From Jhaorihella sp. (lineage in GTDB: Bacteria > Pseudomonadota > Alphaproteobacteria > Rhodobacterales > Rhodobacteraceae), in NCBI GenBank assembly GCA_047975215.1, contig JBKEDD010000042.1:21946-85945 (forward strand): 64,000 bases of DNA, read 5' to 3'. The position numbers were made by a program, and so were the translations under genes. The first letter of the stretch is position 1. Each line of letters begins with the position of its first letter. This document shows positions 14,708 through 41,995 of the stretch, one piece after another. Under the pieces are notes generated by a model. That model made no database searches. It was not told the DNA's origin and worked only from the letters and a program-made list of their open reading frames with translations.

Positions 14708-14761
14708 CACCGGTTCCGTGCGGGGCCTTGGCCCCGCGCGGCGCCTGCGGGGACAGCGAAG

Positions 14762-16599: not shown

Positions 16600-16601
16600 G
16601 G

Positions 16602-19195: not shown

Positions 19196-19211
19196 ACGGG
19201 GAGACTGACCT

Positions 19212-20279
19212 ATGGAACGCAGAAAATTCCTTACCGCCGGCTTGGGGGCAACCGCCGGCATTGCCGCGCTGGCCGCACCGGCCGTGGCACAGGGCAAGAT
19301 CGAATGGAACCTGGCCACCGCCTTTCCAAAGAACGCGCCGGGGGTGGGCACCAATGTCACCAACTTCGCCGAAAAGGTCGGCGCCATGTCCGATGGCCGG
19401 CTGACGCTTACTGTCTATGGCGGCGGCGAACTGGTGCCGCCCTTCGCGGTCGAAGATGCGATCCAGCAGGGCAACATACCCGTGGGCCACGGGCCGACCT
19501 ATTACGCCGCCGGCAAGAACGCCGCGCTGCACTGGTTCACCGCGGTACCCTTCGGGATGACCTCGAACGAACATTTCGCATGGCTGAAATACGGCGGCGG
19601 GCAGGAAATCTGGGACGACATCTATGCCCAGCGTGGATTGCTGCCGTTCTATTCGGGCAACTCCAACACACAGTCGGGCGGCTGGTTCAAGAACCGCATC
19701 GAAAGTGTCGAGGATCTCAAGGGTCTGAACATGCGCATCGCCGGTCTGGGCGGCGAGATCATGCGCAAGCTGGGCACCAACGCGGTGCTGATGCCCCCGC
19801 CCGAGATCTTCACCGCGTTCCAGTCGGGTGCCATCGACGCCGCCGAATGGGTCGGGCCGATGCTGGACCAGGCGTTCGGACTGCAGAAGATTACCAAGCT
19901 GTGCTATCTGCCGGCGCTGACCGAACCCGGCGCGGGCCTCGCCATCGTCTTCAACAAGGACGCCTTCGAGGGGCTGCCTGCCGATCTTCAGGCGATCTGC
20001 ATGAATGCCGCCCATGCCGCGGCATTGGAGAGCCACGCGCAGTTCGATTATTTCAACGCCCGTGCTATGGCGGCACTGAAGGCCGACGGCGTCGAGTTTC
20101 TGGCCTTCCCCGACGACGTGGTTGTGGCCATGCGCGATGCCTGGGGCGAGGTCCAGGACGAACTGACCGCCGCCAATCCAGATGTGGCGCGGGTACGCGA
20201 AAGCTATGACGCCTACCTGGCCGAAGCCCGCGACTATGCAGCGGCGATGACCCTGCCCATGCTGGCGGGGCGCGGCTGA
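19212..20279 (+). CDS. TRAP transporter solute-binding protein with Tat-like signal
   Basis: MERRKFLTAGLGATAGIAALAAPAVAQG twin-Arg-like leader, followed by a DctP-type fold. Confidence 0.8.
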   Translation: MERRKFLTAGLGATAGIAALAAPAVAQGKIEWNLATAFPKNAPGVGTNVTNFAEKVGAMSDGRLTLTVYGGGELVPPFAVEDAIQQGNIPVGHGPTYYAAGKNAALHWFTAVPFGMTSNEHFAWLKYGGGQEIWDDIYAQRGLLPFYSGNSNTQSGGWFKNRIESVEDLKGLNMRIAGLGGEIMRKLGTNAVLMPPPEIFTAFQSGAIDAAEWVGPMLDQAFGLQKITKLCYLPALTEPGAGLAIVFNKDAFEGLPADLQAICMNAAHAAALESHAQFDYFNARAMAALKADGVEFLAFPDDVVVAMRDAWGEVQDELTAANPDVARVRESYDAYLAEARDYAAAMTLPMLAGRG

Positions 20280-20420: not shown

Positions 20421-22865
20421 TCAGCCCTTCACCCGCTCCATCGCGGGGTCGTAGAGCGGTGCGAGCGTGACCTCGCAGGGTACGCGCTCGCTTGCCACTT
20501 CCAGTTCGTATCGCCCGCCCAGCACGAAATCGCGGTCCACGCCGTCGGGGTTGCGCACATAGCCCATGCCGATCGACTTGCCGATGCTGTGGCCGTATCC
20601 GGCCGAACTCAGCCAGCCCACGCGCCGGCCGTCGCGATAGATGGTTTCGCGCCCCGACAGGATCACCGAGGCATCGGCGGTGAAAGTGGCCAGCATCTTG
20701 TTCACCCCCGAAGCGCGCTGCGCGGCGACCGCCTCGCGGCCCCTGAAGGGAGTGTTCTTCTTCAGCTTGACGGCCCAGCCCAGCCCCGCCTCGTCCGGGG
20801 TGTGGTCGGGGCCGATATCGGCCGCCCAGGCGCGATAGCCCTTTTCCAGCCGCAGCGTCTCGATGGCGCGGTATCCGGCGTTGCGCAGCCCGTGCGCCGC
20901 CCCCGCCCGGTGCAGCGCGCCGTAGACGGTGGCGGCGTATTCCACCGGCAGGTGCAACTCCCAGCCCAGTTCGCCGACATAGGTGATGCGCAGGGCGCGC
21001 ACCGGGCAGCCGGCGATGCCGATGGTGCGCGCGGTGGCGAAGGGGAACGCGGCGTCGGACACATCCGCCCGCGTCACCGCGGCCAGGATGTCGCGCGCCT
21101 TCGGCCCCATGAGCGAGAGCGTGGACCAGGCCGAGGTCGCGTCGAACAGCTGTGCGTTCAGGCCGTCGGGTATGTTGCGCGCGATCCAGTCGAAATCGTG
21201 CGTGGCGAAACCGGTGCCGGTGACGATGTAGTATTCGTCCTCGGCGATGCGCACGGCGGTCAGGTCGCATTCGATGCCGCCGTGATCGTTCAGCATCTGG
21301 GTATAGGTGATCCGGCCCACCGGGCCGGCCACGTCGTTGGCGGCGATCCAGCCAAGCGCGGCCTCGGCGTCGGAGCCCTTCAGCACGAACTTGGCAAACG
21401 ATGTTTGGTCGATCAGCACCGCCGCCTCGCGGGCGGCGCGGTGTTCGCGGCCGACCGCATCGTGCCAGTTGGGGCGCTCGAACGTGTAGATGTCGCGCTG
21501 TTGTTCGCCCGCGCCCGTGTCGGCGAACCAGTTCGGCCGCTCCCAGCCCAGTTTCTCGCCGAACACCGCGCCGTCGGCCTTCAGCAGATCGTAGAGCGGT
21601 GACTTGCGGCAGGGGCGTGCGCTGTCGTGTTCCTCGGACGGCCAGGCCATGGTGTAATGCTTGCCGTAGGCCTCGACGGTGCGGGTGCGGATCCAGTCGT
21701 CGTCGAAATGCGGGCGGCCGAAACGGCGGATGTCGGCGGGCCACAGATCGAAGGGCGGTTCGCCCTTGGCCACCCATTCGGCCAGCGCCATGCCGGCGCC
21801 GCCGCCGGCCGCGATGCCGAAGGCGTTGAAGCCCGCCCCGACGAAGAAATTGCGCAGCTCGGGCGCCTCGCCAAGGATGAAGTTGCCATCGGGCGTGAAG
21901 CTTTCCGGCCCGTTGGTCAGTTGCTTGATGCCGGCGGTCTGCAACGCCGGAACCCGGCCCAGCGAAAGTTCCATGATCTGTTCGAAATGGTCGAAATCGC
22001 TGTCCAGCAACGTGTAGTGAAAGCCCCGCGGGATGCCGTTCACCGCCCAGGGCTTCGGGTTGGGCTCGTAGCCGCCCATGACCAGCCCGCCGACCTCTTC
22101 CTTGTAATAGGTCAGCCGGTCAGGATCGCGCAGTGTCGGCAGGCCGGGGCTCACGCCGTCTATGGGTTCGGTCAGCATGTACTGATGTTCCATCGATACC
22201 AGCGGTACGTTGACGCCCACGGTACTGGCGAAGGCGCGAGTCCACTGGCCGCAGCAGGCGATCACCACCGGGGTTTCGATCCGGCCGCGTTCGGTTTGCA
22301 CGCCCCGGATGACGCCCTTGTCCACCTCGACCGACAGCACCTTGGTATCCTCGAAGATTCGCGCCCCGCCCATGCGGGCGCCGCGCGCCAGCGCCTGGGT
22401 GATGTCGGACGGGTTGGCCTGGCCGTCGGTGGGCAGAAAGGCGGCGCCGACCACGTCGTCGATTTGCATCAGGGGCCAGAGTTCCTGCGCCTCGCGCGGA
22501 GTCAGAAGCTGCATGTCCAGCCCGAAGGAATGCGCCGTGGTGGCCTGGCGCTTGACCTCGGTCCAGCGTTCGGCGTTGCAGGCCAGGCGCAGCCCGCCAT
22601 TCATCTTCCAGCCGGTTCCAAGGCCGGTTTCCGCCTCCAGCCGGTTGTAGAGATCGACGGAATAGCCCAGAAGCTGCGTGATGTTGGCGTTCGAGCGCAA
22701 CTGTCCGACCAGCCCGGCGGCGTGGAAGGTGGTGCCCGAGGTCAGTTTCTTGCGTTCGAGCAGGACCACATCCCAGCCCAGCCGGCTGAGGTGATAGGCG
22801 GTCGAACAGCCGACTATGCCGCCGCCCACGATGACCGCACGCGCGGTGTTGGGAAAATCGCTCAT
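20421..22865 (-). CDS. FAD-dependent N-demethylating dehydrogenase with C-terminal GcvT/folate domain (dimethylglycine/sarcosine dehydrogenase family), copy 1
   Basis: Start MSDFPNTARAVIVGGGIVGCSTAYHL follows GGAAGGAA. 814 aa. Stop/start TGATG overlaps the kinase gene. The 918-aa track ORF has a spurious N-terminal extension. Confidence 0.85.
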   Translation of the reverse strand: MSDFPNTARAVIVGGGIVGCSTAYHLSRLGWDVVLLERKKLTSGTTFHAAGLVGQLRSNANITQLLGYSVDLYNRLEAETGLGTGWKMNGGLRLACNAERWTEVKRQATTAHSFGLDMQLLTPREAQELWPLMQIDDVVGAAFLPTDGQANPSDITQALARGARMGGARIFEDTKVLSVEVDKGVIRGVQTERGRIETPVVIACCGQWTRAFASTVGVNVPLVSMEHQYMLTEPIDGVSPGLPTLRDPDRLTYYKEEVGGLVMGGYEPNPKPWAVNGIPRGFHYTLLDSDFDHFEQIMELSLGRVPALQTAGIKQLTNGPESFTPDGNFILGEAPELRNFFVGAGFNAFGIAAGGGAGMALAEWVAKGEPPFDLWPADIRRFGRPHFDDDWIRTRTVEAYGKHYTMAWPSEEHDSARPCRKSPLYDLLKADGAVFGEKLGWERPNWFADTGAGEQQRDIYTFERPNWHDAVGREHRAAREAAVLIDQTSFAKFVLKGSDAEAALGWIAANDVAGPVGRITYTQMLNDHGGIECDLTAVRIAEDEYYIVTGTGFATHDFDWIARNIPDGLNAQLFDATSAWSTLSLMGPKARDILAAVTRADVSDAAFPFATARTIGIAGCPVRALRITYVGELGWELHLPVEYAATVYGALHRAGAAHGLRNAGYRAIETLRLEKGYRAWAADIGPDHTPDEAGLGWAVKLKKNTPFRGREAVAAQRASGVNKMLATFTADASVILSGRETIYRDGRRVGWLSSAGYGHSIGKSIGMGYVRNPDGVDRDFVLGGRYELEVASERVPCEVTLAPLYDPAMERVKG

Positions 22866-23758
22866 CACGGTTCCTTCCGGTTCTGGTAGCCGCGCAGCGC
22901 CCGGCCGTAGCGTTCGAGGTTCTCGGCGGTATAGGCGGCATAGTCGAAGTCGATCTGTGAAGTGATCTCGGAGACCATGCTCCACATGGTTTCGCGCAGC
23001 AGCGAGGCGCATTTCATGGCGCCATAGCTGGCCATCAGCGCCGCGTCGGGGCAGGTGCCGAAATAGCGTTCCAGCATGGCCCGCTCGGCCTCGGGGGGCA
23101 GGCCGCAATTGGTGGCCAGCCCGCCAAGGTCGAACAGCGGCGAGTTGATGCCGCCATATTCCCAGTCGATCAGCCACAGCCGCCCGTCGCCGCGCAATAT
23201 GTTGGCAGGCAGCAGGTCGTTATGGCCCAGAACCGGCGTCACCGGACCCACGACGCGTTCCAGTGTGGCGGCCTGCTCCATCAGCGCCGGCAGCGCGGCG
23301 GCATGGCGCGAGCCGCGTTCGTGCAGGAAACCGGCATAGTCGCGCACGACGTGAAACACCCAGAAACTCAGCACCGGGCCGCGCAGCCGCATTGTTACGT
23401 CGCGATGCGCGCTTGCCACCAGATCGACCGCGGCGAAAAGCGTCGCCTCGTCGTGCAGGTCGGATTCGCCCAGCGGTTCGGCGGGGACGAACTCCAGCAC
23501 CAGCGCGCCCGGCTCGGCGTAGTGGACGGCGGGCGAGACACCGGCCGCCGCCGCCGCGCGACTGATCGACAGTTCGTTGAACCGCATCACGCCATGTTCC
23601 GGAATATCCTCGCCCAGGCGCACGACGTATTTGCGGCCCCCGTCGCTGAGCGTGAGGTTTATGTTGGTAATGCCGCCGTCCAGTGCCGCGATGTCGTGGG
23701 GATCGCGCCAGCACGGCAGCGCGCGCGCCCGCGCCATGGCCCGGTCGAGCGCCGTCAT
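22865..23758 (-). CDS. Choline/ethanolamine-kinase-fold phosphotransferase (APH superfamily), copy 1
   Basis: Start MTALDRAMARA with ATGA overlap of the permease stop. Brenner motif HNDLLPANIL and LIDWEYGG. 297 aa. Confidence 0.75.
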   Translation of the reverse strand: MTALDRAMARARALPCWRDPHDIAALDGGITNINLTLSDGGRKYVVRLGEDIPEHGVMRFNELSISRAAAAAGVSPAVHYAEPGALVLEFVPAEPLGESDLHDEATLFAAVDLVASAHRDVTMRLRGPVLSFWVFHVVRDYAGFLHERGSRHAAALPALMEQAATLERVVGPVTPVLGHNDLLPANILRGDGRLWLIDWEYGGINSPLFDLGGLATNCGLPPEAERAMLERYFGTCPDAALMASYGAMKCASLLRETMWSMVSEITSQIDFDYAAYTAENLERYGRALRGYQNRKEP

Positions 23759-25764
23759 TGTCCCACCCCCAGCCGGTGTTGCGACGCCCGCGCCAGCGCC
23801 GTCAGGATGCGGTCGGATATGATGGCGATGAAGGCAACGGACAGCCCGGCGACGATGCCCGCCCCGGTATTGGCCTTGGTCAGCGCGATATAGACCTCCT
23901 GCCCCAGATCGCGGGTGCCCACCAGCGCGGTGATGACCAGCATCGACAGTGCCAGCATGATGGTCTGGTTGAGCCCCAGAAGCAGCGAGGGCGCGGCCAG
24001 CGGCAGCTTGATGCGCATCAGCAACTGGCGTTCGGTGCAGCCCGACACGCGCCCCGCCTCGATCACCTCGGGTTCTATCGAGCGGATGCCATGTGCGGCA
24101 TAACGCACAGCCGGGGCCAGCGCATAAAGCACCACGGCAATCATCGCCGAGAAATCGCCAACCCGGAACAGCATCACCACCGGGATCAGGTAGACGAAAC
24201 TGGGCAGCGTCTGGAGCGTGTCGATCAGCGCGCCGATCACGGTGTTGGCCCGTGCGTTCTGACCCGCCCAGATGCCCAGCGGAATACCGATGGCACTGGC
24301 GATCAGCACCGAGACTGTAATCAGGTAGACGGTGATCATCGCCTTGGCCCACAGCCCGTTGGCGGCGATGAACAGCGTCATCAGCGCCGCCATCAGCGCC
24401 AGTTTCCAGCCGCCCACGCGGCCGGCCGCGAGGGTGATGGCGATAATGCCCCAGGCCCAGGGGATGCCGGTAAAAAAGCGTTTGACCGGCAGCAGCAGCC
24501 AGGTCAGCAGCGCGGTCTTGATCGCCTCGAGCGTGTTGAAGAAGTTGACGTTGATCCACTCCATCGCCTCGGTCCAGATCGGCCCGGTGGTGATGGTCAG
24601 TTGTTCGGGATACAGCCGGAAACCGGGGATAGCGGCGCCCAGGGCGGTGGTCGCGACCGCAAGCGCAGCGACCGATGTAAACAGCGGATGGCGCCGGTGA
24701 AGCGGCAGCGCCGGATCGGGCCGGGCGCGGACCTTGCGGATGGCAAAGGCCTGGCTGACGCGGTCCAGCGCGATGGCCATGACGACGATGGCCAGCCCCG
24801 CCTCGACCCCGCCGCCGATATCGAGCCGTCTGAGCGCGGTAAGCACGTCATAACCAAGCCCGCCCGCGCCGATCATCGAGGCGATGATGACCATGTTGAG
24901 CGACAGCATGATGACCTGATTGACCCCCACCATGAGCGAGGGCATGGCGGTGGGCACCAGCACCTTCCACAAGAGTTGCCGCCGCTTGCAGCCCATCATG
25001 CGCCCGGCCTCGATCACGTCTTCGGGCACCGAATGCAGCGCCACGGTCGAGACCCGCACCATCGGCGGCATGGCATAGATCACCGTCGCCACCAGCGCCG
25101 AGACCGGACCAAAACCGAACAGGAACAGGATCGGCACGAGGTAAGCGAATACCGGCACCGTCTGCATCAGATCCAGCAGCGGGCGCAGGGTGCGTTCGAA
25201 CCACGGGTGACGGTAGGACACGATACCCAGGGCCAGCCCCCCGGCCACCCCGATGGGCACGGCGATGAGAACCGAAGCCAGCGTGACCATGGCGCTGGCC
25301 CATTGCCCGAACACTGCAAGATAGGCGAAACACCCCGCCGCCAGAAACGCCAGCGCCCGGTTCCTGGCATACCAGGCAAGGGCGGCGATGATCGCGATCA
25401 CCGCGATCCAGGACAGCGACGGCGCCACCTCGACCGCCTGCTGGCCCTGCCCGAGCACGAAGCCGTCGATCAGCAGGGCGCGCACCAGGTCGTAGGGCGC
25501 CTCGATCACCGCCGAGACAAAGCGCGTGAAATCGCGGAAGGTGAACAACCCGAAGGTTGCGTCCTCGACCAGCCAGGCCATGAAGCCGGAAATCCACTGA
25601 TCCACCGGCACCGTCAGGCTGGCCGGAAAGCGGACGATCCAGCGCGCATCCAGCGCCTTGTAAAGCTGGAACGACCAGGTCGAAAGCGCCCAGGTCAGCG
25701 CGAACAATCCCAGCCAGAACGGCCGCGACCCGCCGAACAGCCCCCGCAACAGCGCCGGTTTCAT
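23755..25764 (-). CDS. ProW/OpuAB-type ABC permease, tandem-fused double domain
   Basis: 669 aa with two BPD-transporter domains (..MQTVPVFAYLVPILFLFG.. and ..LQTLPSFVYLIPVVMLF..). ATGA overlaps the ATPase stop. Confidence 0.85.
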   Translation of the reverse strand: MKPALLRGLFGGSRPFWLGLFALTWALSTWSFQLYKALDARWIVRFPASLTVPVDQWISGFMAWLVEDATFGLFTFRDFTRFVSAVIEAPYDLVRALLIDGFVLGQGQQAVEVAPSLSWIAVIAIIAALAWYARNRALAFLAAGCFAYLAVFGQWASAMVTLASVLIAVPIGVAGGLALGIVSYRHPWFERTLRPLLDLMQTVPVFAYLVPILFLFGFGPVSALVATVIYAMPPMVRVSTVALHSVPEDVIEAGRMMGCKRRQLLWKVLVPTAMPSLMVGVNQVIMLSLNMVIIASMIGAGGLGYDVLTALRRLDIGGGVEAGLAIVVMAIALDRVSQAFAIRKVRARPDPALPLHRRHPLFTSVAALAVATTALGAAIPGFRLYPEQLTITTGPIWTEAMEWINVNFFNTLEAIKTALLTWLLLPVKRFFTGIPWAWGIIAITLAAGRVGGWKLALMAALMTLFIAANGLWAKAMITVYLITVSVLIASAIGIPLGIWAGQNARANTVIGALIDTLQTLPSFVYLIPVVMLFRVGDFSAMIAVVLYALAPAVRYAAHGIRSIEPEVIEAGRVSGCTERQLLMRIKLPLAAPSLLLGLNQTIMLALSMLVITALVGTRDLGQEVYIALTKANTGAGIVAGLSVAFIAIISDRILTALARASQHRLGVGQ

Positions 25765-26795
25765 CGTGCCTCCCGCCCGATCATCACGTCGATGGCGGCG
25801 GCTATGTCGACCGTGCCCACCGGCGCGCCGCGCTCGTCCAGCACCCGGAAGGGGCGACGATCGGAATCGAGCGTGCGCACCGCGTCGGCCACCACCAGCG
25901 TACCGGCCACCTCGCCGGCGTAATCGCCCTCGGGCACGCCGGGCGACATGATGGTGGAAAGCCGCGTGACCTTGGCGCGGGGAATGTGACGGGTGAATTC
26001 CTGAACGTAGTCGGTGGCCGGGTTAAGCACCAGTTCTTCCGGCGTCGCGGTCTGCACGATTGCGCCGTCCTTCATCACCGCGATACGGTCGGCCAGCCGG
26101 ATTGCCTCGTCGAAATCGTGGGTGATGAACACGATGGTTTTGCGCAGCATGGATTGCAGGCGCATGAACTCGTCCTGCATCTCGCGCCGGATCAGCGGAT
26201 CGAGCGCGCTGAAGGGTTCGTCGAGAAACCACAGGTCGGGTTCGGCCACCAGCGAACGCGCGATGCCGACGCGCTGCTGCTGGCCGCCCGAAAGCTGGCG
26301 CGGATAGTAATCCTCGCGCCCCGCAAGGCCGACCAGTTCGACCATCTCGCGGGCGCGGCCCTCGCGGGTGCGGCGCGCCACGCCCTGCACCTCAAGCGGG
26401 AAGGCGGCGTTTTCCAGCACCGTCAGATGCGGCAGCAGCGCGAAATGCTGGAACACCATGCCCATCTTCTTGCGCCGCAGTTCGATCAGATCGCGCTCCG
26501 AGATGCCCAGCATGTCGCGGCCCTCGAAATTGATCGCCCCTGCGGTCGGTTCGATCAGCCGCGACAGACAGCGCACCAGCGTCGACTTGCCCGACCCCGA
26601 CAACCCCATGATGACGAAGATCTCGCCCTCGCCAATATGTACATCGGCATCGCGTACCGCCCCGATCATGCCCGAGCCCTCGAAATCGGATTCCGAGGGG
26701 GCGCCGCCGTGACGGTCGAGAAACCGCCGCGGATCGGCGCCATAGATCTTCCAGACGCCGCGGCAATCCAGTTTGACGGGACGCTCCATCCTCAC
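25761..26795 (-). CDS. ProV/OpuAA-type ABC ATPase with C-terminal CBS region
   Basis: Walker A GLSGSGKST, signature LSGGQQQRV, Walker B LWFLDEP. The start may be GTG 26795 or ATG 26789. Confidence 0.85.
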   Translation of the reverse strand: MRMERPVKLDCRGVWKIYGADPRRFLDRHGGAPSESDFEGSGMIGAVRDADVHIGEGEIFVIMGLSGSGKSTLVRCLSRLIEPTAGAINFEGRDMLGISERDLIELRRKKMGMVFQHFALLPHLTVLENAAFPLEVQGVARRTREGRAREMVELVGLAGREDYYPRQLSGGQQQRVGIARSLVAEPDLWFLDEPFSALDPLIRREMQDEFMRLQSMLRKTIVFITHDFDEAIRLADRIAVMKDGAIVQTATPEELVLNPATDYVQEFTRHIPRAKVTRLSTIMSPGVPEGDYAGEVAGTLVVADAVRTLDSDRRPFRVLDERGAPVGTVDIAAAIDVMIGREAR

Positions 26796-26911
26796 CTCGG
26801 TCGGTTTGCGGGTTGGTATCTCGGGCCGGTTCGGCGGTCGGTTTGGCGGTCGGTTCCGGGCGCCGGTGCGCCGGATTGCGGCCGGGGCGGATCAGCCGCC
26901 CCGGCGTGCGC

Positions 26912-27853
26912 CTACTCGATCCAGGCGGACCAGGTGTCCTTGTTGTTGGCCATCCACTCGGCCACCACGTCCTCGATGCTCTGGCCGTCCAGATCGACCT
27001 TTCCGACCATGGTACCCATGTCGGCGTTGGAGATGTTGAACGCCTCGATCGACTTGACGGCCCCCGGCCACTTGTCCGCGACACCGGACCAGGCCACCTT
27101 CCAGATCGGTCCGGTCGGCTTGCCGCAATCGTAGGCCATGTCTGGGTTTATTCCCTGGGACGGATCGTCATAGCATTCGGTGGAATAGGGCGGGAATTCG
27201 ACGAAGGAGCCCTCGTATTTCGACGTCGACCAGTGCGGGCTGTAGATCCACAACACGATCGGCGCCTTGCGCTGATAGGCCGATTCCAGTTCCGCGAACA
27301 GGGCGGCGTCGGTGCCGGCATGAACCACCTCGAAATCCAGCCCCAGCGATTCGACGCGCTCCTCGTCGAACCCGCCCCACGTCACGGGACCGCCCAGATA
27401 CCGGCCCAGCGGCGCGGTTTCGGGGGTTGAGAACTCCTGCGCGCAGTCGTTCAGCGCCTGCCAGTCGGGCAGGCCGGGGCAGACCTCTTCCATATAGGCC
27501 GGGTACCACCAGTCCTCGATCGCCTGCATCCCGGTCGAGCCGAGATTGACGACATTGCCGGTGTTCGTGGCCTCGTCCATCGCCTCGCGGCCCGTGGTCT
27601 CCCAGATCTCCATCGCGACATGCAGATCGCCGGTCTTCAGCCCCGCGAACTGCGCGATATAGTCGGCCTGCACATATTCCACGTTGTAGCCAGCCTGTTT
27701 GAGCACCTCACCCATGATCGTCGTGGTCACGATCTGGCCGGTCCAGTCATGCGTCGTCAGCTTGATCGGGTCGAGCGATTCGACATCCGACCATGCGGCG
27801 CCCGCGGCGAACGCGGACAGGACCGCGGTGGAAATCAGGAAATTCGTTCTCAT
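26912..27853 (-). CDS. Quaternary-amine (glycine betaine/choline/TMAO-type) ABC substrate-binding protein
   Basis: 313 aa with signal peptide MRTNFLISTAVLSAFAAGAAWS. OpuAC/ProX-like with aromatic-rich WW/Y residues. GGGAGG SD. Confidence 0.75.
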   Translation of the reverse strand: MRTNFLISTAVLSAFAAGAAWSDVESLDPIKLTTHDWTGQIVTTTIMGEVLKQAGYNVEYVQADYIAQFAGLKTGDLHVAMEIWETTGREAMDEATNTGNVVNLGSTGMQAIEDWWYPAYMEEVCPGLPDWQALNDCAQEFSTPETAPLGRYLGGPVTWGGFDEERVESLGLDFEVVHAGTDAALFAELESAYQRKAPIVLWIYSPHWSTSKYEGSFVEFPPYSTECYDDPSQGINPDMAYDCGKPTGPIWKVAWSGVADKWPGAVKSIEAFNISNADMGTMVGKVDLDGQSIEDVVAEWMANNKDTWSAWIE

Positions 27854-27978
27854 GGTTCAGCCTCCCAGCCAGTCTTGGTTTTGCCTTGGTTCTGCGCTAG
27901 ATTTCAGCGGCGCCGGCCGCACCCGGAGCCGCGGATCCTGTCGTGATTTTGCGTAGCAGGGTTTGGCAAAAACCAACA

Positions 27979-28013
27979 AAAAGCAACATAAAATTTCCGA
28001 TAATGTTGCTTTT
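27979..28013. promoter_or_regulatory. Inverted repeat AAAAGCAACAT-N13-ATGTTGCTTTT in the SBP/DeoR divergent promoter region
   Basis: Perfect 11-bp arms read directly. The same CAACAT-N13-ATGTTG core recurs at 33108-33132. Confidence 0.5.
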
Positions 28014-28098
28014 CCTATAGAAAGCTATGGATTTCCGTGCGGTTTGGTGCCTTACTTGGCCGAAACCGGATCAGAACCGCAAAGGCCGGCCCGACCAG

Positions 28099-28875
28099 AT
28101 GGATACGCGTTCGAACCATCGCCAGCGCGAGATCGTTGAGCAACTGCACCGCTCGGGCGGGTCGATGCGCATTCAGGCCCTAGCCCGCGCGCTGAGCGTC
28201 ACCGAAGAGACCGTGCGCCGCAACCTGCGCAGTCTTGCCGATGGCGGCATTGTCGAGCGGATGCATGGCGGCGCGCGGCTGGTCGCGCCCGACAGCACGG
28301 CCGAGCCCAACTTTCAGGCCCGGTTCCGCGAGAATCCGGCGGCCAAACAGCGCATCGCGCGCCACGTCGCCGCGATGCTGCCCGACGAAGCGTCGCTGTT
28401 TCTGGATATCGGCAGCACCACGGCGCATATCGCCGACGCGCTTTGCGATCATCGACGGCTGGTGGTCGTCACCAATTCCGTCTATGTTGCCTACCGACTG
28501 GCCAGCCGCAATGAAAACCGCGTGTTCATGGCCGGGGGAGAGTTGCGCGCCCATGACGGTGGCGCTTTCGGGGCGGACGCGATGGGCTTTGCGGCCAATT
28601 TCAACACCGATTTCGCGGTGCTGTCCTCGGCCGGGATCACCGTCAATGGGTTCGGGTTGTTCGATCTGGAAGAGGCGCAGTTCTCGCGGTTGATCATGAA
28701 ACAGGCGGCAACCCGGATCATGGCGGCGGATTCCAGCAAGTTCGGCCGCGAGGCGCCGGTTGCCATCGGCGAGCCCGAACAGGTCGATTATCTGGTCTGT
28801 GACCGCGCCCCGCCGCCCGAGATCGCGGCAGCCGCCTCCGGGTGGGGTACGCAAATCCGGGTGACGGCAGAGTGA
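28099..28875 (+). CDS. DeoR/GlpR-family transcriptional regulator
   Basis: HRQREIVEQLHRSGGSMRIQALARALSVTEETVRRNLRSL HTH plus a DeoR C-terminal sensor domain. The track ORF starts at 28027; ATG 28099 gives the usual N-terminus. Confidence 0.8.
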   Translation: MDTRSNHRQREIVEQLHRSGGSMRIQALARALSVTEETVRRNLRSLADGGIVERMHGGARLVAPDSTAEPNFQARFRENPAAKQRIARHVAAMLPDEASLFLDIGSTTAHIADALCDHRRLVVVTNSVYVAYRLASRNENRVFMAGGELRAHDGGAFGADAMGFAANFNTDFAVLSSAGITVNGFGLFDLEEAQFSRLIMKQAATRIMAADSSKFGREAPVAIGEPEQVDYLVCDRAPPPEIAAAASGWGTQIRVTAE

Positions 28876-29645
28876 TGAGCATCGCAGCGATCCGCGACAC
28901 GGCGACCGCAATCGCCAGATCAGCCGGAGAGGTGGCCATGGCGCATTTCCGCACGCCGCTGCAGATCGACGCCAAGGCCGACGAAAGCCCGGTGACGCGC
29001 GCCGACCGCGAGACCGAGGCGCATATCCGCGCCGCCCTGGCCCGCGAATTTCCCGGCCACGGGATCCTGGGCGAGGAATATGGCGTCAGCGGGTCGCTGG
29101 AGGGCGATACCTGGGTGATCGACCCGATCGACGGCACCCGTTCGTTTATCACCGGCAATCCGCTGTTCGGGCTGCTGATGGCCTATCTTTCGGGCGGCGT
29201 GCCGCGCCTGGGGCTGGTCCATATGCCGGCACTGGGGGAAACCTATATTGGCGCAAGCGGCCTGGGGGCGGCGCGCAACGGTGTGCGCATCCGCTGCCGG
29301 GATACGGCGTCGCTCGATCATGCTTCGGTCTACATCAACGAAGCCGAGCGGGTGCGCACCATGGACGGCCCGCTGTTTGACCGGTTGTGCGGCATCGGCC
29401 GGACCCGGCGAATGAGCTATGACTGCTACCCCTATGCGCTGCTGGCGTCGGGCCAGATCGACGCGGTGGTCGATTGCGGGCTTGAGCCTTACGACTATCT
29501 GCCGCTGGTCGGTCTGATCGAGGCCGCGGGCGGGGTCATCACCGACTGGCAGGGCGGGGCGCTGACCCTGCGTTCCGACGGACGCGTAGCCGCGGCGGCG
29601 ACAAGGGCGCTGCACGGGGCGCTGCTTGAGGTTCTTGGCGGCTGA
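28875..29645 (+). CDS. Inositol-monophosphatase-family phosphatase (HisN-like)
   Basis: Motifs LGEE and WVIDPIDGTRSF. TGATG overlaps the DeoR stop. Confidence 0.75.
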   Translation: MSIAAIRDTATAIARSAGEVAMAHFRTPLQIDAKADESPVTRADRETEAHIRAALAREFPGHGILGEEYGVSGSLEGDTWVIDPIDGTRSFITGNPLFGLLMAYLSGGVPRLGLVHMPALGETYIGASGLGAARNGVRIRCRDTASLDHASVYINEAERVRTMDGPLFDRLCGIGRTRRMSYDCYPYALLASGQIDAVVDCGLEPYDYLPLVGLIEAAGGVITDWQGGALTLRSDGRVAAAATRALHGALLEVLGG

Positions 29646-29687
29646 TCTCCGGCGTGTCTGCGGCCGTGGCACGGTTTGCCCGGCCCC

Positions 29688-30617
29688 TCACCCCGCCCTG
29701 ACGGCGGCGACGTGGCCTGCAAAGGCGGGATCGTTCATCAACGCCTTGCAGCGGTCGAATCGTGTCGTGGCGTAGGCCCAGAAATCCTCGGCCGGGTTGG
29801 CATCGGCGTGCTGGATCAGGCCCCAGAGCGTCCAGAGCAGATCGCACATCGCCTTGTAGATCACCACGCGCCCGGTTTCGGCCGGGTCGGGTTCGCGCCC
29901 GAAATAACCGCGCAGCAGCTCGGCTTCGGCGGTGGCGTCCATGCCCGCCTCGACCGACAGGTCGCCCACGTCCCACAAGGGATCGTTCATGCCGGAATAT
30001 TCCCAATCGACGATCCACATGGTCTTGCCGTCATCCAGGAAATTCTCGCACAAGGGGTCGCAATGGCAGGGCGCAAGCGGGGCCGGATTGGTCGCCAGCG
30101 CCTCTTTCACCGGCTCGGCGGCGCGAACGATGTCGTGATAGCCCTGCGGAAGGGTCGCGTCCTTGCCCGAGAGAAGATCAAGATAGTTTTCGATCATCGA
30201 AAACAGCTCGAACCGGAAGTCGAAGGTTTCGCCCGACGCGTGCAGCCGCGCCAGCGCCCGCCCGGCGCGGCCCGCAGCGCCGGGCCGCGCGGCAAACAGA
30301 TCCGGCGTCATGGTCACGATCCCGTCGATGGCGCGCGTTATCATGACGCCCTGGGCGGCGTTGGCCCACAGCACCTCGGGCGATACCCCGGCGCGGTGGG
30401 CGGCCTGCGCATTGGCCAGTTCGACGGCGCGGTCGATATAGGTTTCGGTGCCCTCGCCGGGGATGCGCACGACCACCCGATGCTGGCCGGTATCGACCAT
30501 GTGCACCAGATTGGTCAGCCCGCCGAACCGTGTCACCGTGCAATTGTTGCGCGCGACGCCCTCGAATCCGGGCGCGTTGCGCAATGCGGCGAGAACGGTA
30601 TCGGTGTGCTCGGACAT
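29688..30617 (-). CDS. Choline/ethanolamine-kinase-fold phosphotransferase (APH superfamily), copy 2
   Basis: 309 aa. HCDPLCENFL and IVDWEYSGMNDP motifs. Strong AAGGAGGG SD overlaps the upstream dehydrogenase stop. Confidence 0.75.
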   Translation of the reverse strand: MSEHTDTVLAALRNAPGFEGVARNNCTVTRFGGLTNLVHMVDTGQHRVVVRIPGEGTETYIDRAVELANAQAAHRAGVSPEVLWANAAQGVMITRAIDGIVTMTPDLFAARPGAAGRAGRALARLHASGETFDFRFELFSMIENYLDLLSGKDATLPQGYHDIVRAAEPVKEALATNPAPLAPCHCDPLCENFLDDGKTMWIVDWEYSGMNDPLWDVGDLSVEAGMDATAEAELLRGYFGREPDPAETGRVVIYKAMCDLLWTLWGLIQHADANPAEDFWAYATTRFDRCKALMNDPAFAGHVAAVRAG

Positions 30618-30627
30618 GTGCCCTCCT

Positions 30628-33051
30628 TCAGGATTTCAGCCGTTGGTTCTGCGGGTCGTAAAGCGGGCCCTCGACGCGGGTCACGGGGTGGCGTTCGCCG
30701 AATACCTCGATCTCGAAATCGCCCTCGTCCCAGTATTGGCGGTCAAGATAGCCCAGCACGATGGTCTGCCCGACGGTGTGGCCAAAGCCCGCCGACGCGG
30801 CCAGCGACACCACCGCGCCATCCTTCAGGATGGTTTCGCCGCCGAACAGCGGCAGGCTTGCGGGCGTGACAAAGGTGCAAAGCCGCCGCGCCGGGCCTTG
30901 TGCCTTCTGCGCCTCCAGCACGCTGCGGCCGATGAAATCGCCCCCCGATCGCAGATGCACGCGAAAGCCCAGCCCCGCCTCGATCGGCGTGTAATCGGGC
31001 GAGATGTCGGCCGACCAGTAGAGATAGCCCTTTTCGAGCCGCAGCGAATCGATGGCGCGATAGCCGACATCGCGGATGCCGGCGCCTTGCCCGGCCCCGT
31101 GCAGCAGGTGGTAGACATGGGCGCCGAATTCGGTGGGCACATGCAATTCCCAGCCCAGTTCGCCGACGTATCCGATGCGCACCGCGCGCACCGGCGCGCA
31201 GCCGATGGTGATCTCGCGCGCCGTGGCGAAGGGAAAGGCGGCGTTCGATACATCTTCTTCGCAGACCGCGGCCAAAACTTCGCGCGCTTTCGGACCGCAC
31301 AGGTTGATGACCGCCCGCGCCGATGTGACCTCGATCAGATGCACGCTGCCATCTTTGGGCATGTGCCGCCTTATCCAGTCGGAATCATGGGTGCCGAAAC
31401 CCGCTCCGGTGACGAGGTAGAAATGTTGCGCGCCCAGCCGCGTTATCGTCACGTCGCATTCGATCCCGCCGTTTTCGTTGCACAGTTGCGCATAGATCAC
31501 CGATCCGGCGGGCCGGTCCATGTTGCAGGCCGCCAGCCGTTGCAGCAGCGCCAGCGCGCCGGGGCCGACGATTTCGAACTTGGCGAAACTGGTCTGGTCG
31601 ATCAGCGCCGCGCCTTCGCGCACGGCGCGGTGTTCGGCAGCGGCAAACTCGTGCCAGCCGGGATCGACAAAGCCCAGCCGGTCCTCGGCCGGAACGCCCT
31701 TGGGGGCGAACCACAACGGCCGTTCCCAGCCGTTCTTTGACCCCATGACCGCGCCGCGTTCCTTCAGGATCGCGTGCAGGGGCGAGAGGCGCAGATCGCG
31801 CGCACTTTCATATTCCTGGCCGGGATAGCGCATCTTGTAGTGATAGGCGTAATGCTCGACGGCGCGCGGATACATGAAGGCGCGGCTGCCGTGATGGGGG
31901 CCGAAACGGCGCACGTCCAGCGGCCACAGGTCAAGCCCGGGGCGGCCCCGGGTGATCCATTCCGCGATCATCTCGCCCGCGCCACCACCGGCGGCGATGC
32001 CGTAAAGGAACCCGGTCGCCAGCATCAGGTTGTCAAAGCCCGGCGCCCAGCCCATCACGAAATCGCCATCGGCCGAATAGGGGATCGGGCCGTTAATGAC
32101 CTGCCTTATGCCGACCTCGTTCAGCACCGGCGTTACCTGTGCCGCCAGTTCGGCCAGCGGCGCGAACCGTTCCATGTTGTCGGGCAGAAGCTGGCGGGCG
32201 AAATCGCCCGGGATGCCGCGCTCGCCAAAGGCGCGGGTGTCGTCCTCGTACCCGCCCAGCACCAGCCGCCCGCCGGCGTCGGGCTTGTAATAGACCAGCC
32301 GTTCGGGATCGCGCAGCGTCGGCAGGGTGCGCACCAGGTCGGGGTCGGGCAGGGGTTCTGTCACGATATACTGGTGTTCGACCGCGCAGGCCGGAACCCT
32401 GAGGCCCAGCTTCGCGCCCAGTTCGCGGCTCCACATGCCGGCGGCCAGAACAACGGTTTCGGCCTCCCAGTCGCCGTCGTCGGTCATCACCCGTGCGATG
32501 CGCCCGTCGCGCACGTCGAAATCCGTGACCCGCGCACCCTGGCGAATTTGCGCGCCGTGCAGCCGCGCGCCGGCGGCCAGCGCCTGGCACAACCCCGCCG
32601 GATCGACATGGCCGTCCGAGGGGATGAAGGCGGCGCCGGCAAGGCCGGTCGCGTCGATATAGGGAAACAGCGCCTTGGCCTCGGCGGCCGAGATCACCTG
32701 CATCTCAAGCCCGAAACTGCGCGCCATCGTGGCCAGGCGTTTCGCTTCGAGCAGCCGTTCGGGCGTGGCGGCCAGCCGCAGGCTTCCGACCTTTCTCCAG
32801 TCGAAATCAAGCCCGGTTTCCGGCCCCAGCCGGTCATAGAGCGCCACCGAGCGTTGCAGCATCCGCGTGGTGTTGCGCGAGGATCGCAACTGTCCCACCA
32901 GCCCGGCGGCGTGCCAGGTCGCGCCTTCGGTCAGTGCCGATTTCTCCAGCAGCACAACATCGGATTCGCCGTTGCGTGCCAGATGATAGGCGGTGGCGCA
33001 GCCGATGATGCCGCCGCCGATGATCAGATGCCGCGCGCTGTGGGTGGTCAT
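30628..33051 (-). CDS. FAD-dependent N-demethylating dehydrogenase with GcvT/folate domain, copy 2
   Basis: ATG start MTTHSARHLIIGGGIIGCATAYHL; the track starts at GTG 33078. 807 aa. Clear paralogue of 20421-22865. Confidence 0.85.
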   Translation of the reverse strand: MTTHSARHLIIGGGIIGCATAYHLARNGESDVVLLEKSALTEGATWHAAGLVGQLRSSRNTTRMLQRSVALYDRLGPETGLDFDWRKVGSLRLAATPERLLEAKRLATMARSFGLEMQVISAAEAKALFPYIDATGLAGAAFIPSDGHVDPAGLCQALAAGARLHGAQIRQGARVTDFDVRDGRIARVMTDDGDWEAETVVLAAGMWSRELGAKLGLRVPACAVEHQYIVTEPLPDPDLVRTLPTLRDPERLVYYKPDAGGRLVLGGYEDDTRAFGERGIPGDFARQLLPDNMERFAPLAELAAQVTPVLNEVGIRQVINGPIPYSADGDFVMGWAPGFDNLMLATGFLYGIAAGGGAGEMIAEWITRGRPGLDLWPLDVRRFGPHHGSRAFMYPRAVEHYAYHYKMRYPGQEYESARDLRLSPLHAILKERGAVMGSKNGWERPLWFAPKGVPAEDRLGFVDPGWHEFAAAEHRAVREGAALIDQTSFAKFEIVGPGALALLQRLAACNMDRPAGSVIYAQLCNENGGIECDVTITRLGAQHFYLVTGAGFGTHDSDWIRRHMPKDGSVHLIEVTSARAVINLCGPKAREVLAAVCEEDVSNAAFPFATAREITIGCAPVRAVRIGYVGELGWELHVPTEFGAHVYHLLHGAGQGAGIRDVGYRAIDSLRLEKGYLYWSADISPDYTPIEAGLGFRVHLRSGGDFIGRSVLEAQKAQGPARRLCTFVTPASLPLFGGETILKDGAVVSLAASAGFGHTVGQTIVLGYLDRQYWDEGDFEIEVFGERHPVTRVEGPLYDPQNQRLKS

Positions 33052-33107
33052 CGCCGTCGTCCCCCGGGAAATTGCCACTGGCTATTTCAGGTAGACTGAC
33101 AGAAACC

Positions 33108-33133
33108 CAACATTATGCCAAAAGAAATGTTGC
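33108..33133. promoter_or_regulatory. Inverted repeat CAACAT-N13-ATGTTGC upstream of dehydrogenase copy 2
   Basis: Read directly, 57-82 nt upstream of ATG 33051. Same core and spacing as 27983-28009. Confidence 0.5.
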
Positions 33134-33294: not shown

Positions 33295-33705
33295 TCAGTC
33301 CAGCGATATCCGCCCCTTGCGGTCGTGGATGATGGCGTCGACTTCTATTTCGACCATCAGGCCGGGGGTGGTCAGGCCGGCCTCGACCCCGGTCAGGACC
33401 GGTTCGATGCCCTGGAACACCTCGCCGTGCCGGCGGATGAAACCGCCCGCATCGCGCATGTCGGTGACGAAGGCGCGGGTTCTGACCACATGGCGCATCT
33501 TGGCGCCGGCCTCTTTCAGCAGATCTTCGATCTTGTCGAAGATGAACACCGTCTGTTCATAGATGTCGAACGGGGCATAGACCTTGCCGTTGGACTGCAT
33601 GGAGGTCAGACCCGCGACGAACACGAAAGGGCCGACCCGCTTGACGCGGCTGTAGGATCCGGCTTTTTCGAACCGTCCGCCGCCTGATATGGTTTTTATC
33701 GTCAT
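33295..33705 (-). CDS. RidA/YjgF-family reactive-imine deaminase
   Basis: 136 aa. GPFVFVAG..R.FVTDM..pattern of the YjgF/RutC fold. Last gene of the operon. Confidence 0.8.
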   Translation of the reverse strand: MTIKTISGGGRFEKAGSYSRVKRVGPFVFVAGLTSMQSNGKVYAPFDIYEQTVFIFDKIEDLLKEAGAKMRHVVRTRAFVTDMRDAGGFIRRHGEVFQGIEPVLTGVEAGLTTPGLMVEIEVDAIIHDRKGRISLD

Positions 33706-33748
33706 GTGAAGTGCGAATGCCTTTCATGTTGATGAGCGCGTTGAAGTG

Positions 33749-35050
33749 TCAGCGGGCACGTGCCCTGTCGTCGCGCCGGTCCGCGATCCGGTAAAGCTGA
33801 TGCGCGAAGGGCAGGAACCACGGCGTCTTGCGGTACCAGAACCGGGTTTCCAGCGTGGTTTCGGTGAACGCCGTCGCGCCGGCCGGGTCGTCCATCATCA
33901 GCAGCGCCGCCTTGTGGCCCAGATAGGGTGCCATGGCGTTGCCGCTGCCGGAATAGCCCATCGCGTGCCAGATTCCGTCCAGCCGGCCGATATGGGGCAT
34001 GAACGAAAAGGTGAATCCGGTCTGGCCGGTCCAGCTGTGGGTGAGCTTCAGCGTTCTCGTTTGTGGAAAAATTTCTCCGAGCAACCCGTGCAGTACCCGG
34101 GCCGAGCGCGCGAGCGATACCCTGTTCATGGCCGCCCGCCCGCCCAGCACCAGCCGCCTGCCGTCCGGCGACAGCCGGAAATAGCAGTGCCGGTTGCGGG
34201 TTTCCACGCACATGCGCCGCCCCGGCATCAGGTCGTCGGCCATGCCCTCGGGCAGTTCCTCGGTCGCGATCAGAAAGCTCGACACCGGGATCATGCGGCG
34301 TTTCAGGTTCGGGAAATCCGGCGTGGTATAGCCGTTCGTGGCCATCAGTACCGCCGCGGCGCGGATTTCTCCCCTGGCGGTGGTCACAACGAATCCCGAA
34401 CCGGCGGGGCGAACATCGCGTACCGCCGTCTGCCCGAACACCCGTGCGCCGGCGCTTCGGGCGGCCTGCAATATGCCGGTCATGTACTTGCCCGGATGCA
34501 GGCCGCCGTGATCGTGCAGCAGCATGCCGCCGCTATACAGGCCCGATCCTATTTCCGCGCGCTGGCGTTCGGGGGGCACCATGTCGATATTGACCGCCAC
34601 CAGCTTGCGCAGATCGTCCAGCCCGCGGGCGGTTGCGTCGTATTCGGCCCGGTTCCACTGACCGCGGAACCGGCCATACTGGTGATAGTCGCACTCGATG
34701 CCTTCGTCGCGGATGCGCGACACCGCGAATGCAAGCGAATCGACATGCGATTCGACCAGCAGGCGCTGCGCGGTTTCCGCCCCGTATTTTTCAGCCATCT
34801 GTTCGGGCGACAAACGGTAGCCGCCGCCGATCATTCCGCCATTGCGCGTGCTTGCGCCCCAGCCCGGATCTTGTGCGTCAAGCGCGACCACGTCCTTGCC
34901 GGCCCGGGCCAGCGTCAGCGCCGCCGAGCAGCCGGTAAGCCCGGCCCCGACGATCACGACATCGCATTCGGCGGGTAGTTCGGGGGGCGGATCGGCGGGC
35001 CGGTCCCGGAACGGCGCGACGTCCTCCCACCAATAGGGATCGGGTTTCAT
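33749..35050 (-). CDS. FAD-dependent amine oxidoreductase (DAO fold, gamma-glutamylputrescine-oxidase-like)
   Basis: 433 aa. CDVVIVGAGLTGCSAAL dinucleotide-binding motif. Confidence 0.75.
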   Translation of the reverse strand: MKPDPYWWEDVAPFRDRPADPPPELPAECDVVIVGAGLTGCSAALTLARAGKDVVALDAQDPGWGASTRNGGMIGGGYRLSPEQMAEKYGAETAQRLLVESHVDSLAFAVSRIRDEGIECDYHQYGRFRGQWNRAEYDATARGLDDLRKLVAVNIDMVPPERQRAEIGSGLYSGGMLLHDHGGLHPGKYMTGILQAARSAGARVFGQTAVRDVRPAGSGFVVTTARGEIRAAAVLMATNGYTTPDFPNLKRRMIPVSSFLIATEELPEGMADDLMPGRRMCVETRNRHCYFRLSPDGRRLVLGGRAAMNRVSLARSARVLHGLLGEIFPQTRTLKLTHSWTGQTGFTFSFMPHIGRLDGIWHAMGYSGSGNAMAPYLGHKAALLMMDDPAGATAFTETTLETRFWYRKTPWFLPFAHQLYRIADRRDDRARAR

Positions 35051-35091
35051 GATGGTCCTGTCACTATATGCCGGCCGGGCCGGCTTCGGCT

Positions 35092-36501: not shown

Positions 36502-36545
36502 GTTTCTCTCCTGTTGGTGTCGCCATGCGGCGGCGCGGCCCCTTG

Positions 36546-40417: not shown

Positions 40418-40442
40418 ACCCCGACCCGGAAGGATGACGCAT

Positions 40443-41966: not shown

Positions 41967-41968
41967 GC

Positions 41969-41990: not shown

Positions 41991-41995
41991 CAGTT

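Follow-up and report, generated by a model that had tools for sequence, protein, structure and literature searches.

The window analyzed here is a stretch of 64,000 nucleotides from Jhaorihella sp. (Rhodobacteraceae; contig JBKEDD010000042.1 of assembly GCA_047975215.1, positions 21,946 to 85,945), and our subject is a cluster of nine genes within it. Two of them encode phosphotransferases of the choline/ethanolamine kinase family (K1 and K2) and two encode predicted FAD- and tetrahydrofolate (THF)-dependent N-demethylases of the dimethylglycine dehydrogenase (DMGDH) family (DH1 and DH2). The others encode the binding protein, ATPase, and fused permease of an ATP-binding cassette (ABC) importer, a DeoR-type regulator, and an inositol monophosphatase (IMPase)-family phosphatase (Table 1). 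Gene calls were based on the open reading frame (ORF) listing together with Pfam and NCBIfam (release 20) profile scans of the window proteins. They placed the nine genes, with their domains, motifs, and overlapping stops and starts, where an earlier note on this DNA had put them. Read directly from the sequence, the permease and K1 genes overlap by ATGA, and the K1 stop overlaps the DH1 start by TGATG. The same TGATG joins the DeoR stop to the IMPase start, in agreement with the translational coupling claimed for this pair, and the phosphatase therefore most likely starts at the ATG at 28875 and not at the GTG at 28842. The Shine-Dalgarno sequence of K2, said to lie in the DH2 stop region, was likewise found, as AGGAGG-N4-ATG immediately after the DH2 stop. 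The G+C content is about 65% across the window, and the composition is unbroken at the cluster. Identical copies of the K1 and K2 proteins are recorded from a metagenome-assembled genome of Jhaorihella sp. A promoter scan returned no promoter-like sites, and terminator-like sites were fewer than in shuffled sequences.

Table 1. Genes and candidate operators of the cluster, with positions in the window and the evidence for each assignment
Feature	Position	Strand	Evidence
DH1, predicted FAD/THF N-demethylase, DMGDH family, 814 aa, last of operon 1	20421-22865	-	DAO + FAO_M + GCV_T + GCV_T_C (Pfam)
K1, choline/ethanolamine-kinase-family phosphotransferase, 297 aa, modified head-group pocket	22865-23758	-	Pfam Choline_kinase/APH; HNDLLPANIL, IDWEY
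Fused double ProW/ChoW-type ABC permease, 669 aa	23755-25764	-	Two BPD_transp_1 stretches; two matches to choline and ProW permease models
ProV-type ABC ATPase, 344 aa	25761-26795	-	TIGR01186 proV subfamily, 338 bits, above cut-off
Periplasmic binding protein, OpuAC fold, TmoX-like, first of operon 1	26912-27853	-	Pfam OpuAC; nearest solved structure 4XZ6, 252 bits
Palindrome CAACAT-N13-ATGTTG, candidate operator, divergent region between binding-protein and DeoR genes	27984-28008	.	Pattern search
DeoR/GlpR-family regulator	28027-28875	+	Pfam HTH_DeoR + DeoRC
IMPase-family phosphatase, HisN-like	28875-29645 (ORF from 28842)	+	Pfam Inositol_P; HisN model 237.5 bits
K2, choline-kinase-like phosphotransferase, 309 aa	29688-30617	-	HCDPLCENFL, VDWEY; 7/8 LicA choline-pocket residues
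DH2, predicted FAD/THF N-demethylase, 816 aa, first of operon 2, DH1 paralogue	30628-33078	-	DAO + FAO_M + GCV_T + GCV_T_C (Pfam)
Palindrome CAACAT-N13-ATGTTG, second copy, candidate operator, upstream of DH2	33108-33132	.	Pattern search

The kinase and dehydrogenase genes had been described in the earlier note as duplicated modules. The pairing is indeed present, but a recent duplication is not what the sequences suggest: K1 and K2 share 26% identity and DH1 and DH2 share 48%, so that K1-DH1 and K2-DH2 are, to judge by these values, old and distinct paralogous modules. The adjacency of the two gene types is kept in relatives. Relatives of K1 are encoded in at least 568 stretches of a collection holding one genome per bacterial and archaeal species, and linkage was counted by tblastn with all window proteins in the best 80 of these loci. 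Of the 73 loci with room for one, 58 have a dehydrogenase gene no more than 120 bp downstream of K1, and in 29 of 31 loci K2 has one directly upstream. The full order, DH2-K2-(IMPase, DeoR)-binding protein-ATPase-permease-K1-DH1, was found in roseobacters, Roseibium, Stappia (Stappiaceae), Hwanghaeella, Rhizobiaceae metagenome-assembled genomes (MAGs), Amaricoccus, and Granulosicoccus; in Roseibium aggregatum, DH1 is relocated to the opposite end of the cluster. When the neighboring ORFs of the 80 loci were clustered, the nine cluster families alone were widely common, and the next most frequent family was present in 9 loci. With kinase-dehydrogenase adjacency and the whole cluster recurring in dozens of genomes from different families, the arrangement is far beyond chance. 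Partial sets also occur. A Ruegeria plasmid carries DeoR-DH2-K2 only, a Shinella plasmid carries binding protein-ATPase-permease-K1-DH1 together with a DeoR gene and, nearby, a K2 gene, and Marinibacterium has the K1-DH1 pair without the rest of the cluster. The kinase-dehydrogenase pair is thus the minimal conserved unit. Among the records examined, two labeled uncultured Flavobacteriaceae (loci L003 and L053) and one labeled Mesoflavibacter (L069) carry an alphaproteobacterial-type cluster. In gene order and in protein identities to the window, L003 is like Hwanghaeella and L069 like Pacificispira (L073), and the taxonomic labels of these three MAGs are probably wrong.

The palindrome CAACAT-N13-ATGTTG has two matches in the 64-kb window, even with one mismatch allowed, against an expectation of 0.09, and both are located at promoter regions of the cluster. 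In its relaxed form, CAACA-N15-TGTTG, it has 17 matches in 900 kb of related loci, 16 of which, spread over eleven genomes, are found no more than 300 bp upstream of DH2 or binding-protein genes; in part of the relatives it is undetectable. Since the palindrome is confined to the promoter regions of both operons, these look like one DeoR regulon, with the palindrome as a candidate operator of the DeoR protein. This regulator contains the HTH_DeoR and DeoRC sensor domains of its family. Its best NCBIfam match is of the GlpR type and falls below the cut-off, and no equivalog cut-off was reached. The helix-turn-helix begins at residue 32 of the long ORF and orthologues measure about 260 residues, and the true start is probably the ATG at 28099. 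Effectors of DeoR-family regulators are mostly phosphate esters.

Both kinases contain the Brenner motif HxDxxxxN and (I/V)DWEY and belong to the choline/ethanolamine kinase family (PF01633). K2 is an orthologue of PDB 3DXQ, an uncharacterized structural-genomics protein of Mesorhizobium loti (389 bits), and matches the pneumococcal choline kinase LicA (PDB 4R77) at 102 bits. In LicA, the ammonium of choline is surrounded by Tyr197, Trp251, Trp254, Tyr268, and Val178, with Glu213 lining the rim of the site and Thr29 and Asp176 holding the hydroxyl (PMC4364537). This pocket was compared in an alignment of 120 K2-family and 120 K1-family proteins. T29, D176, Y197, E213, W251, W254, and Y268 are present in all 120 K2-family proteins, in which V178 is replaced by Leu, and the catalytic residues of LicA that were examined are kept in K2. 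In the K1 family, Glu213 is replaced by Asn and Trp251 by Glu (120/120), which departs from the LicA-type pocket, so that K1 should not, by its pocket residues, be filed as a choline kinase. Given a pocket kept in K2 and changed in K1, K2 would seem to act on a choline-like, well-methylated amino alcohol and K1 on a related but different head group, plausibly a less methylated one. The best NCBIfam model for both proteins is that of the pre-guanitoxin N-oxide kinase GntI (NF041256), with 133 bits for K1 and 153 bits for K2 against a cut-off of 357, and neither kinase reached a curated equivalog cut-off in the NCBIfam scan. A homoserine-kinase-type role, with homoserine betaine from betaine lipids as the substrate, was considered and dropped, as no ThrB-type model matched K1 or K2. 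About ten of the 80 loci hold a K1-like kinase only, at 61-66% identity. Such stand-alone kinases (L082, L083, and L084 among them) carry the Asn/Glu pocket signature of K1, and the two loci of this kind that were looked up lie beside SBP_bac_5 and SOUL-domain genes, in a housekeeping-looking context.

DH1 and DH2 are each other's closest relatives. Each carries a DAO domain with GxGxxG, an FAO_M linker, and GCV_T and GCV_T_C domains in one chain of about 810 residues, which is the architecture of DMGDH and sarcosine dehydrogenase (SARDH). In alignments to 1PJ5 and 4P9S, both proteins present the residues that in dimethylglycine oxidase (DMGO) correspond to His48, which carries the covalent flavin, the His225/Tyr259 dyad, and the folate-site Asp552. 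Across the two families, 39 DH1 and at least 19 of 21 DH2 sequences have His48 and Tyr259; the readings of His225 and Asp552 are for the two window proteins only. With these catalytic and folate residues conserved, DH1 and DH2 should carry out flavin-dependent amine oxidation with carbon transfer to THF. Phosphocholine was rejected as a dehydrogenase substrate, its quaternary amine having no lone pair for flavin-dependent oxidation, and N-methylated aminoethylphosphonates were dropped because a kinase would be needless for them. Over the FAD domain, DH1 is 36% identical to rat DMGDH, the range for DH1 and DH2 is 36-39%, and a third bacterial paralogue reaches 44%. A set of positions (R57, S58, T63, W86, K87, S113, T244, R250, K255, F329, A352/A353, R380, and H386) is invariant in the 39 DH1 and 21 DH2 sequences and differs in rat and human DMGDH, in DMGO, and in the third paralogue; A352/A353 is His in the dimethylglycine enzymes. 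By this signature, DH1 and DH2 form a subfamily of their own, apart from canonical DMGDH, and together with the identity values it would argue against dimethylglycine or sarcosine as their substrate. Judging by the structure of monomeric sarcosine oxidase, three of the signature positions probably lie in the segments that make up the substrate site in this superfamily, which are the stretch following the flavinylated His, the strand that bears the catalytic Tyr, and a glycine-rich motif near the C terminus. The extra basic residues R57, K87, R250, and R380 would fit a phosphate group, which is no proof of one.

Two further observations concern the dehydrogenases of related loci. A third DMGDH-like paralogue without the DH1/DH2 signature lies convergent to DH1 in L053 (13857-16277) and L059 (13856-16276) and may be the genuine dimethylglycine or sarcosine dehydrogenase there. 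On a plasmid of Shinella sp. HZN7 (L088), a gene for a formaldehyde-sensitive FrmR-type repressor (9912-10184) immediately follows the DH1 orthologue, which is consistent with formaldehyde release when THF is limiting.

The linkage of kinase and dehydrogenase genes places both in the same pathway and is silent on the order of the steps. The order could thus be reversed, with free amino alcohols demethylated first and the kinases phosphorylating the products, for instance ethanolamine to phosphoethanolamine for lipids or for a lyase, while the phosphatase balances the pool. K1 would lend itself to such a role, as its pocket, minus one Trp and plus a Glu, fits a less methylated amine, and its relatives stand alone in housekeeping contexts as a general ethanolamine-type kinase would. 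However, K2 with the choline cage of LicA fits a methylated substrate and not a demethylated product, and a product kinase needs no two forms, each with its own dehydrogenase. In addition, all characterized substrates of the DMGDH family known to us (dimethylglycine, sarcosine, and 4-methylaminobutyrate) carry an anionic group, and DH1 and DH2 have gained invariant basic residues, not lost them. We therefore regard demethylation before phosphorylation as distinctly unlikely.

The structure nearest to the binding protein, 4XZ6, is that of TmoX of Ruegeria pomeroyi with trimethylamine N-oxide (TMAO), which is held in a pocket of Trp55, Trp102, Phe106, Glu131, Trp177, Phe220, and Trp222 (PMC8918994). 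The cluster protein keeps four of these seven residues, Trp55, Trp102, Glu131, and Trp177, and in 23-24 of 24 orthologues Phe106 is replaced by Gly, Phe220 by Trp, and Trp222 by Tyr. Against the ProX and ChoX models it scores 41 and 40 bits, below the respective NCBIfam cut-offs of 215 and 379. It is a TmoX relative with a different, enlarged pocket. With the aromatic cage and Glu131 of TmoX retained and Gly in place of Phe106, the expected ligand is a methylated ammonium compound that bears an oxygen function and is slightly larger than TMAO. The best family match of the IMPase-family protein, a member of the IMPase superfamily, is the HisN model (TIGR02067), at 237.5 bits and under the cut-off of 275. 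Its solved relatives include histidinol-phosphatases, and we consider it a HisN-like paralogue. HisN itself hydrolyzes an amino-alcohol phosphate.

A more conventional interpretation would be ordinary betaine catabolism, in which DH1 and DH2 would be dimethylglycine and sarcosine dehydrogenases, the importer would take up betaine or choline, and the kinases, as part of a choline regulon, would serve the synthesis of phosphatidylcholine or surface phosphocholine. The dehydrogenases do have the domain architecture of DMGDH and SARDH, the transporter matches ProU and choline-type models, and some records call the kinases "LPS biosynthesis choline kinase." However, translational coupling ties the kinases to the dehydrogenases, and the pairs also occur without the transporter. 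No betA, betB, betaine demethylase, licC, or pcs gene was recurrent beside the cluster in the neighbor clustering of the 80 loci. The binding protein, at about 40 bits to ProX and ChoX, is a relative of TmoX instead, DH1 and DH2 are more distant from mammalian DMGDH than the third paralogue is, and neither a DeoR regulator nor a HisN-like phosphatase would have a role there. We rejected betaine catabolism as the principal explanation on account of this coupling, the TmoX-like binding protein, and the separate subfamily that DH1 and DH2 form, and we consider it very unlikely.

The most economical reading of the nine genes would be a sequence of import, phosphorylation, THF-dependent demethylation, and dephosphorylation. 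With moderate confidence, we propose that they constitute an inducible regulon by which methylated ethanolamines would be imported, phosphorylated, demethylated as phospho-bases, and dephosphorylated. Pocket residues and gene neighbors together narrow the predicted substrate to a choline-like amino alcohol whose amine is tertiary or secondary, N,N-dimethylethanolamine and N-methylethanolamine being the likeliest. Both would be taken up by the TmoX-like ABC importer, and K1 and K2 would phosphorylate the amine's hydroxyl, K2 acting on the dimethyl and K1 on the monomethyl compound. The phosphate would then provide the anionic handle needed by the DMGDH family. DH2 and DH1 would strip the N-methyl groups stepwise by flavin oxidation, the methyl carbon passing to 5,10-methylene-THF, and the HisN-like phosphatase would convert phosphoethanolamine into ethanolamine, which would enter known pathways. 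The DeoR repressor would sit on the shared palindrome at both promoters until released by a phosphorylated intermediate. A quaternary amine is not oxidizable by a flavin dehydrogenase, so choline would have to lose one methyl group to an enzyme from outside the cluster before it could enter. Somewhat more tentatively, we suggest that marine and some soil Alphaproteobacteria possess an aerobic "phosphobase demethylation" pathway, a catabolic mirror of the phosphoethanolamine methylation route. The earlier note had already interpreted the cluster as import and phosphorylation-dependent demethylation of an N-methylated compound. That interpretation gained from the linkage, the shared palindrome, the type of regulator, the HisN-like phosphatase, and the dehydrogenase subfamily; its notion of duplication, at 26% identity between the kinases, fell away.

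The genes found beyond DH1 in relatives speak for ethanolamine as the likely product. In Cognatishimia maritima, the operon extends past DH1 to genes for an FGase-family amidohydrolase, a glutamine synthetase (GS)-like protein, an aldehyde dehydrogenase (ALDH), an iron alcohol dehydrogenase (Fe-ADH), and a HAD hydrolase. The GS-like, ALDH, and Fe-ADH trio also comes right after DH1 in Aliiroseovarius and Marinibacterium, the trio together with the amidohydrolase is directly 3' of DH1 in L010, L012, L013, and L018, and an orthologous ALDH gene is found 3' of DH1 in L003, L007, and L008 (Hwanghaeella included). A gamma-glutamyl ethanolamine pathway has been described in Phaeobacter and Chromohalobacter (PMC10132767). 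The genes 3' of DH1 resemble its gene set in enzyme type.

In Marinibacterium and Salipiger, the K1-DH1 pair lies right after tmm and tdm, the genes for trimethylamine monooxygenase and TMAO demethylase, in a methylated-amine island, and the tdm stop overlaps the K1 start. In Marinibacterium sp. SX1 (L085, 6308-17216), K1-DH1 is placed between tmm-tdm and the GS-like/ALDH/Fe-ADH set, an insertion also seen in L013, L015, L033, and L036; the L085-type locus is without K2, DH2, the transporter, and the IMPase gene. The tmm-tdm-K1-DH1 order suggests either a shared methylated-amine island or a replacement of the first demethylation step by Tmm and Tdm. The same order could point to phosphorylation-dependent demethylation of another compound, either another N-methylated amino alcohol, such as an N-methylated aminopropanol or serinol, or an N-hydroxy compound such as N,N-dimethylhydroxylamine, formed from dimethylamine via Tmm. 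The O-phosphate of N,N-dimethylhydroxylamine would resemble dimethylglycine in shape, GntI, the best model for both kinases, is an N-hydroxy kinase, and the nearest solved relative of the binding protein binds an N-oxide. The GntI match is, however, well under the model cut-off, and the catalytic Asp and LicA cage of K2 have a geometry that would suit O-C-C-N spacing. Moreover, genes like those of the ethanolamine pathway lie 3' of DH1 in several genomes, and the hydroxylamine route would leave a toxic end product in a cluster without a detoxifying gene. Another compound of this kind is, in our view, an unlikely substrate.

Several points weigh against phosphorylation-dependent demethylation of methylated ethanolamines as proposed here. 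One ATP per molecule would be lost at the phosphatase, a price that would be lower with phosphate recycling or direct use of phosphoethanolamine. Chemistry alone gives no reason for two very different kinases, and the K2 pocket suits choline; if K2 is a true choline kinase, the scheme is short of one enzyme. Given the stand-alone K1-like kinases in housekeeping contexts, the K1 substrate may be a common metabolite and not a dedicated catabolic one. The extra basic residues in DH1 and DH2 do no more than suggest phosphate binding. Finally, no gamma-glutamyl ethanolamine genes lie beside the cluster in the window, where genes for RidA, an FAD oxidoreductase, an ALDH, and an Mgs-like trio are found instead.

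These last genes are part of a run of six on the minus strand upstream of DH2 (33295-39621), encoding a RidA-family protein, a 433-residue FAD oxidoreductase that partially matches the models for pipecolate oxidase and aminophosphonate oxidoreductase, an ALDH similar to aminobutyraldehyde dehydrogenase, and a GATase/GXGXG/GltB-like trio that resembles the N-methylglutamate synthase MgsABC. The run could be another amine-catabolic operon, possibly for the cluster product. RidA adjoins DH2 in the window and in its closest relative (L002) only, and the other genes of the run lie beyond the L002 locus. On the other side of the cluster, two tripartite ATP-independent periplasmic (TRAP) systems (DctP, DctQ; DctQ, DctM, DctP) occupy 13622-20279 on the plus strand, convergent to DH1; Phaeobacter imports ethanolamine by the TRAP system EtoX. 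At 2275-7302, 13 kb from the cluster, lie genes for a creatinase/prolidase-type M24 peptidase, an AsnC regulator, an ALDH, and a class-III aminotransferase, a fold that includes ethanolamine-phosphate phospho-lyases. Two apparently unrelated catabolic units occupy 39755-43585: in one, a GntR regulator accompanies a malonyl-CoA synthase, and in the other a LysR regulator accompanies an L-piperidine-6-carboxylate dehydrogenase that scores above its equivalog cut-off. A gene at the window edge (63190-63957) for the alpha subunit of an electron-transfer flavoprotein is probably housekeeping; DMGDH-type dehydrogenases usually pass their electrons to such a flavoprotein.

Among the major currencies of marine carbon, nitrogen, and one-carbon units are methylated amines and the head groups of lipids. 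To our knowledge, the known routes (choline-betaine-dimethylglycine-sarcosine, trimethylamine/TMAO, and gamma-glutamyl ethanolamine) leave out N,N-dimethylethanolamine and N-methylethanolamine, two compounds that derive from lipid head groups and are also left at the end of anaerobic choline demethylation. Full-text literature searches found no published description of the cluster, and a description in a subscription journal is possible. NCBIfam release 20 has no specific model for the cluster orthologues, and their RefSeq names are generic ("FAD-dependent oxidoreductase," "choline/ethanolamine kinase family protein," and "phosphotransferase"). We regard the proposed pathway as an uncharacterized, widespread one assembled from known superfamilies, whose logic has one recent, non-homologous precedent, in Eubacterium limosum. 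If the proposal is true, methylated ethanolamines would join the pool of marine one-carbon and nitrogen sources, and "phosphorylate first, then demethylate" would have evolved a second, independent time. It would also give a function to the solved but uncharacterized structure 3DXQ, new substrate specificities to four enzyme families and a TmoX-like transporter, and marker genes for a new flux in marine metagenomes.

Each component of the cluster has a known counterpart from which it differs. DH1 and DH2 have the four-domain architecture and the catalytic and folate residues of DMGDH, SARDH, and DMGO (4PAA, 5L46, and 1PJ5), and like chemistry is expected. However, they are only 30-39% identical to these enzymes, bear their own signature, are encoded by kinase-coupled genes, and have a phosphate ester, not a carboxylate, as the predicted substrate. 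LicA serves cell-wall phosphocholine synthesis within the lic operon, whereas K2 is coupled to a demethylase and K1 differs from LicA at two pocket positions. The importer is like TmoXWV of R. pomeroyi and SAR11 in its ProU-type ATPase and permease and in a binding protein with three of the four cage Trp residues (the fourth being Tyr) and the Glu on the ligand oxygen. True TmoX proteins conserve F106, F220, and W222 (PMC8918994), in contrast to the cluster orthologues, nearly all of which have F106G, F220W, and W222Y, and the partners of the cluster importer are kinases and demethylases in most loci and Tmm and Tdm in few. The phosphatase shares its fold and metal-binding motifs with HisN but is encoded beside a DeoR gene in a catabolic cluster with no his genes. 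The phosphoethanolamine N-methyltransferase route of plants, nematodes, and Plasmodium has the same phospho-base intermediates as those proposed here. It is, however, biosynthetic and S-adenosylmethionine dependent and runs in the opposite direction with unrelated enzymes. The proposed pathway would stop short of phosphocholine.

The closest parallel in logic is that of E. limosum, in which MthK must phosphorylate choline before MthB demethylates it, a requirement for which Krzycki and colleagues gave an "acidic handle" rationale (PMC12155760). As in the proposed pathway, the kinase of the MthK/MthB/MthC/MthA system acts first, a phospho-base is N-demethylated, the methyl group passes to THF, and the kinase and demethylase genes are co-localized. 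The proteins are unrelated, being an MttB-family methyltransferase, a corrinoid protein, and a serine-kinase-like kinase in E. limosum and predicted flavoenzymes and choline-kinase-fold kinases in the cluster. Domains of an MttB-family methyltransferase, a corrinoid protein, or a corrinoid:THF methyltransferase were absent from the nine genes and their recurrent neighbors. The E. limosum route is anaerobic and cobalamin dependent, removes one methyl group from a quaternary amine, and ends at dimethylaminoethanol, whereas the route proposed for the cluster would be aerobic and FAD dependent, with DH1 and DH2 chemistry limited to tertiary and secondary amines. The Mth system of E. limosum is an analogue of the cluster, not a homologue.

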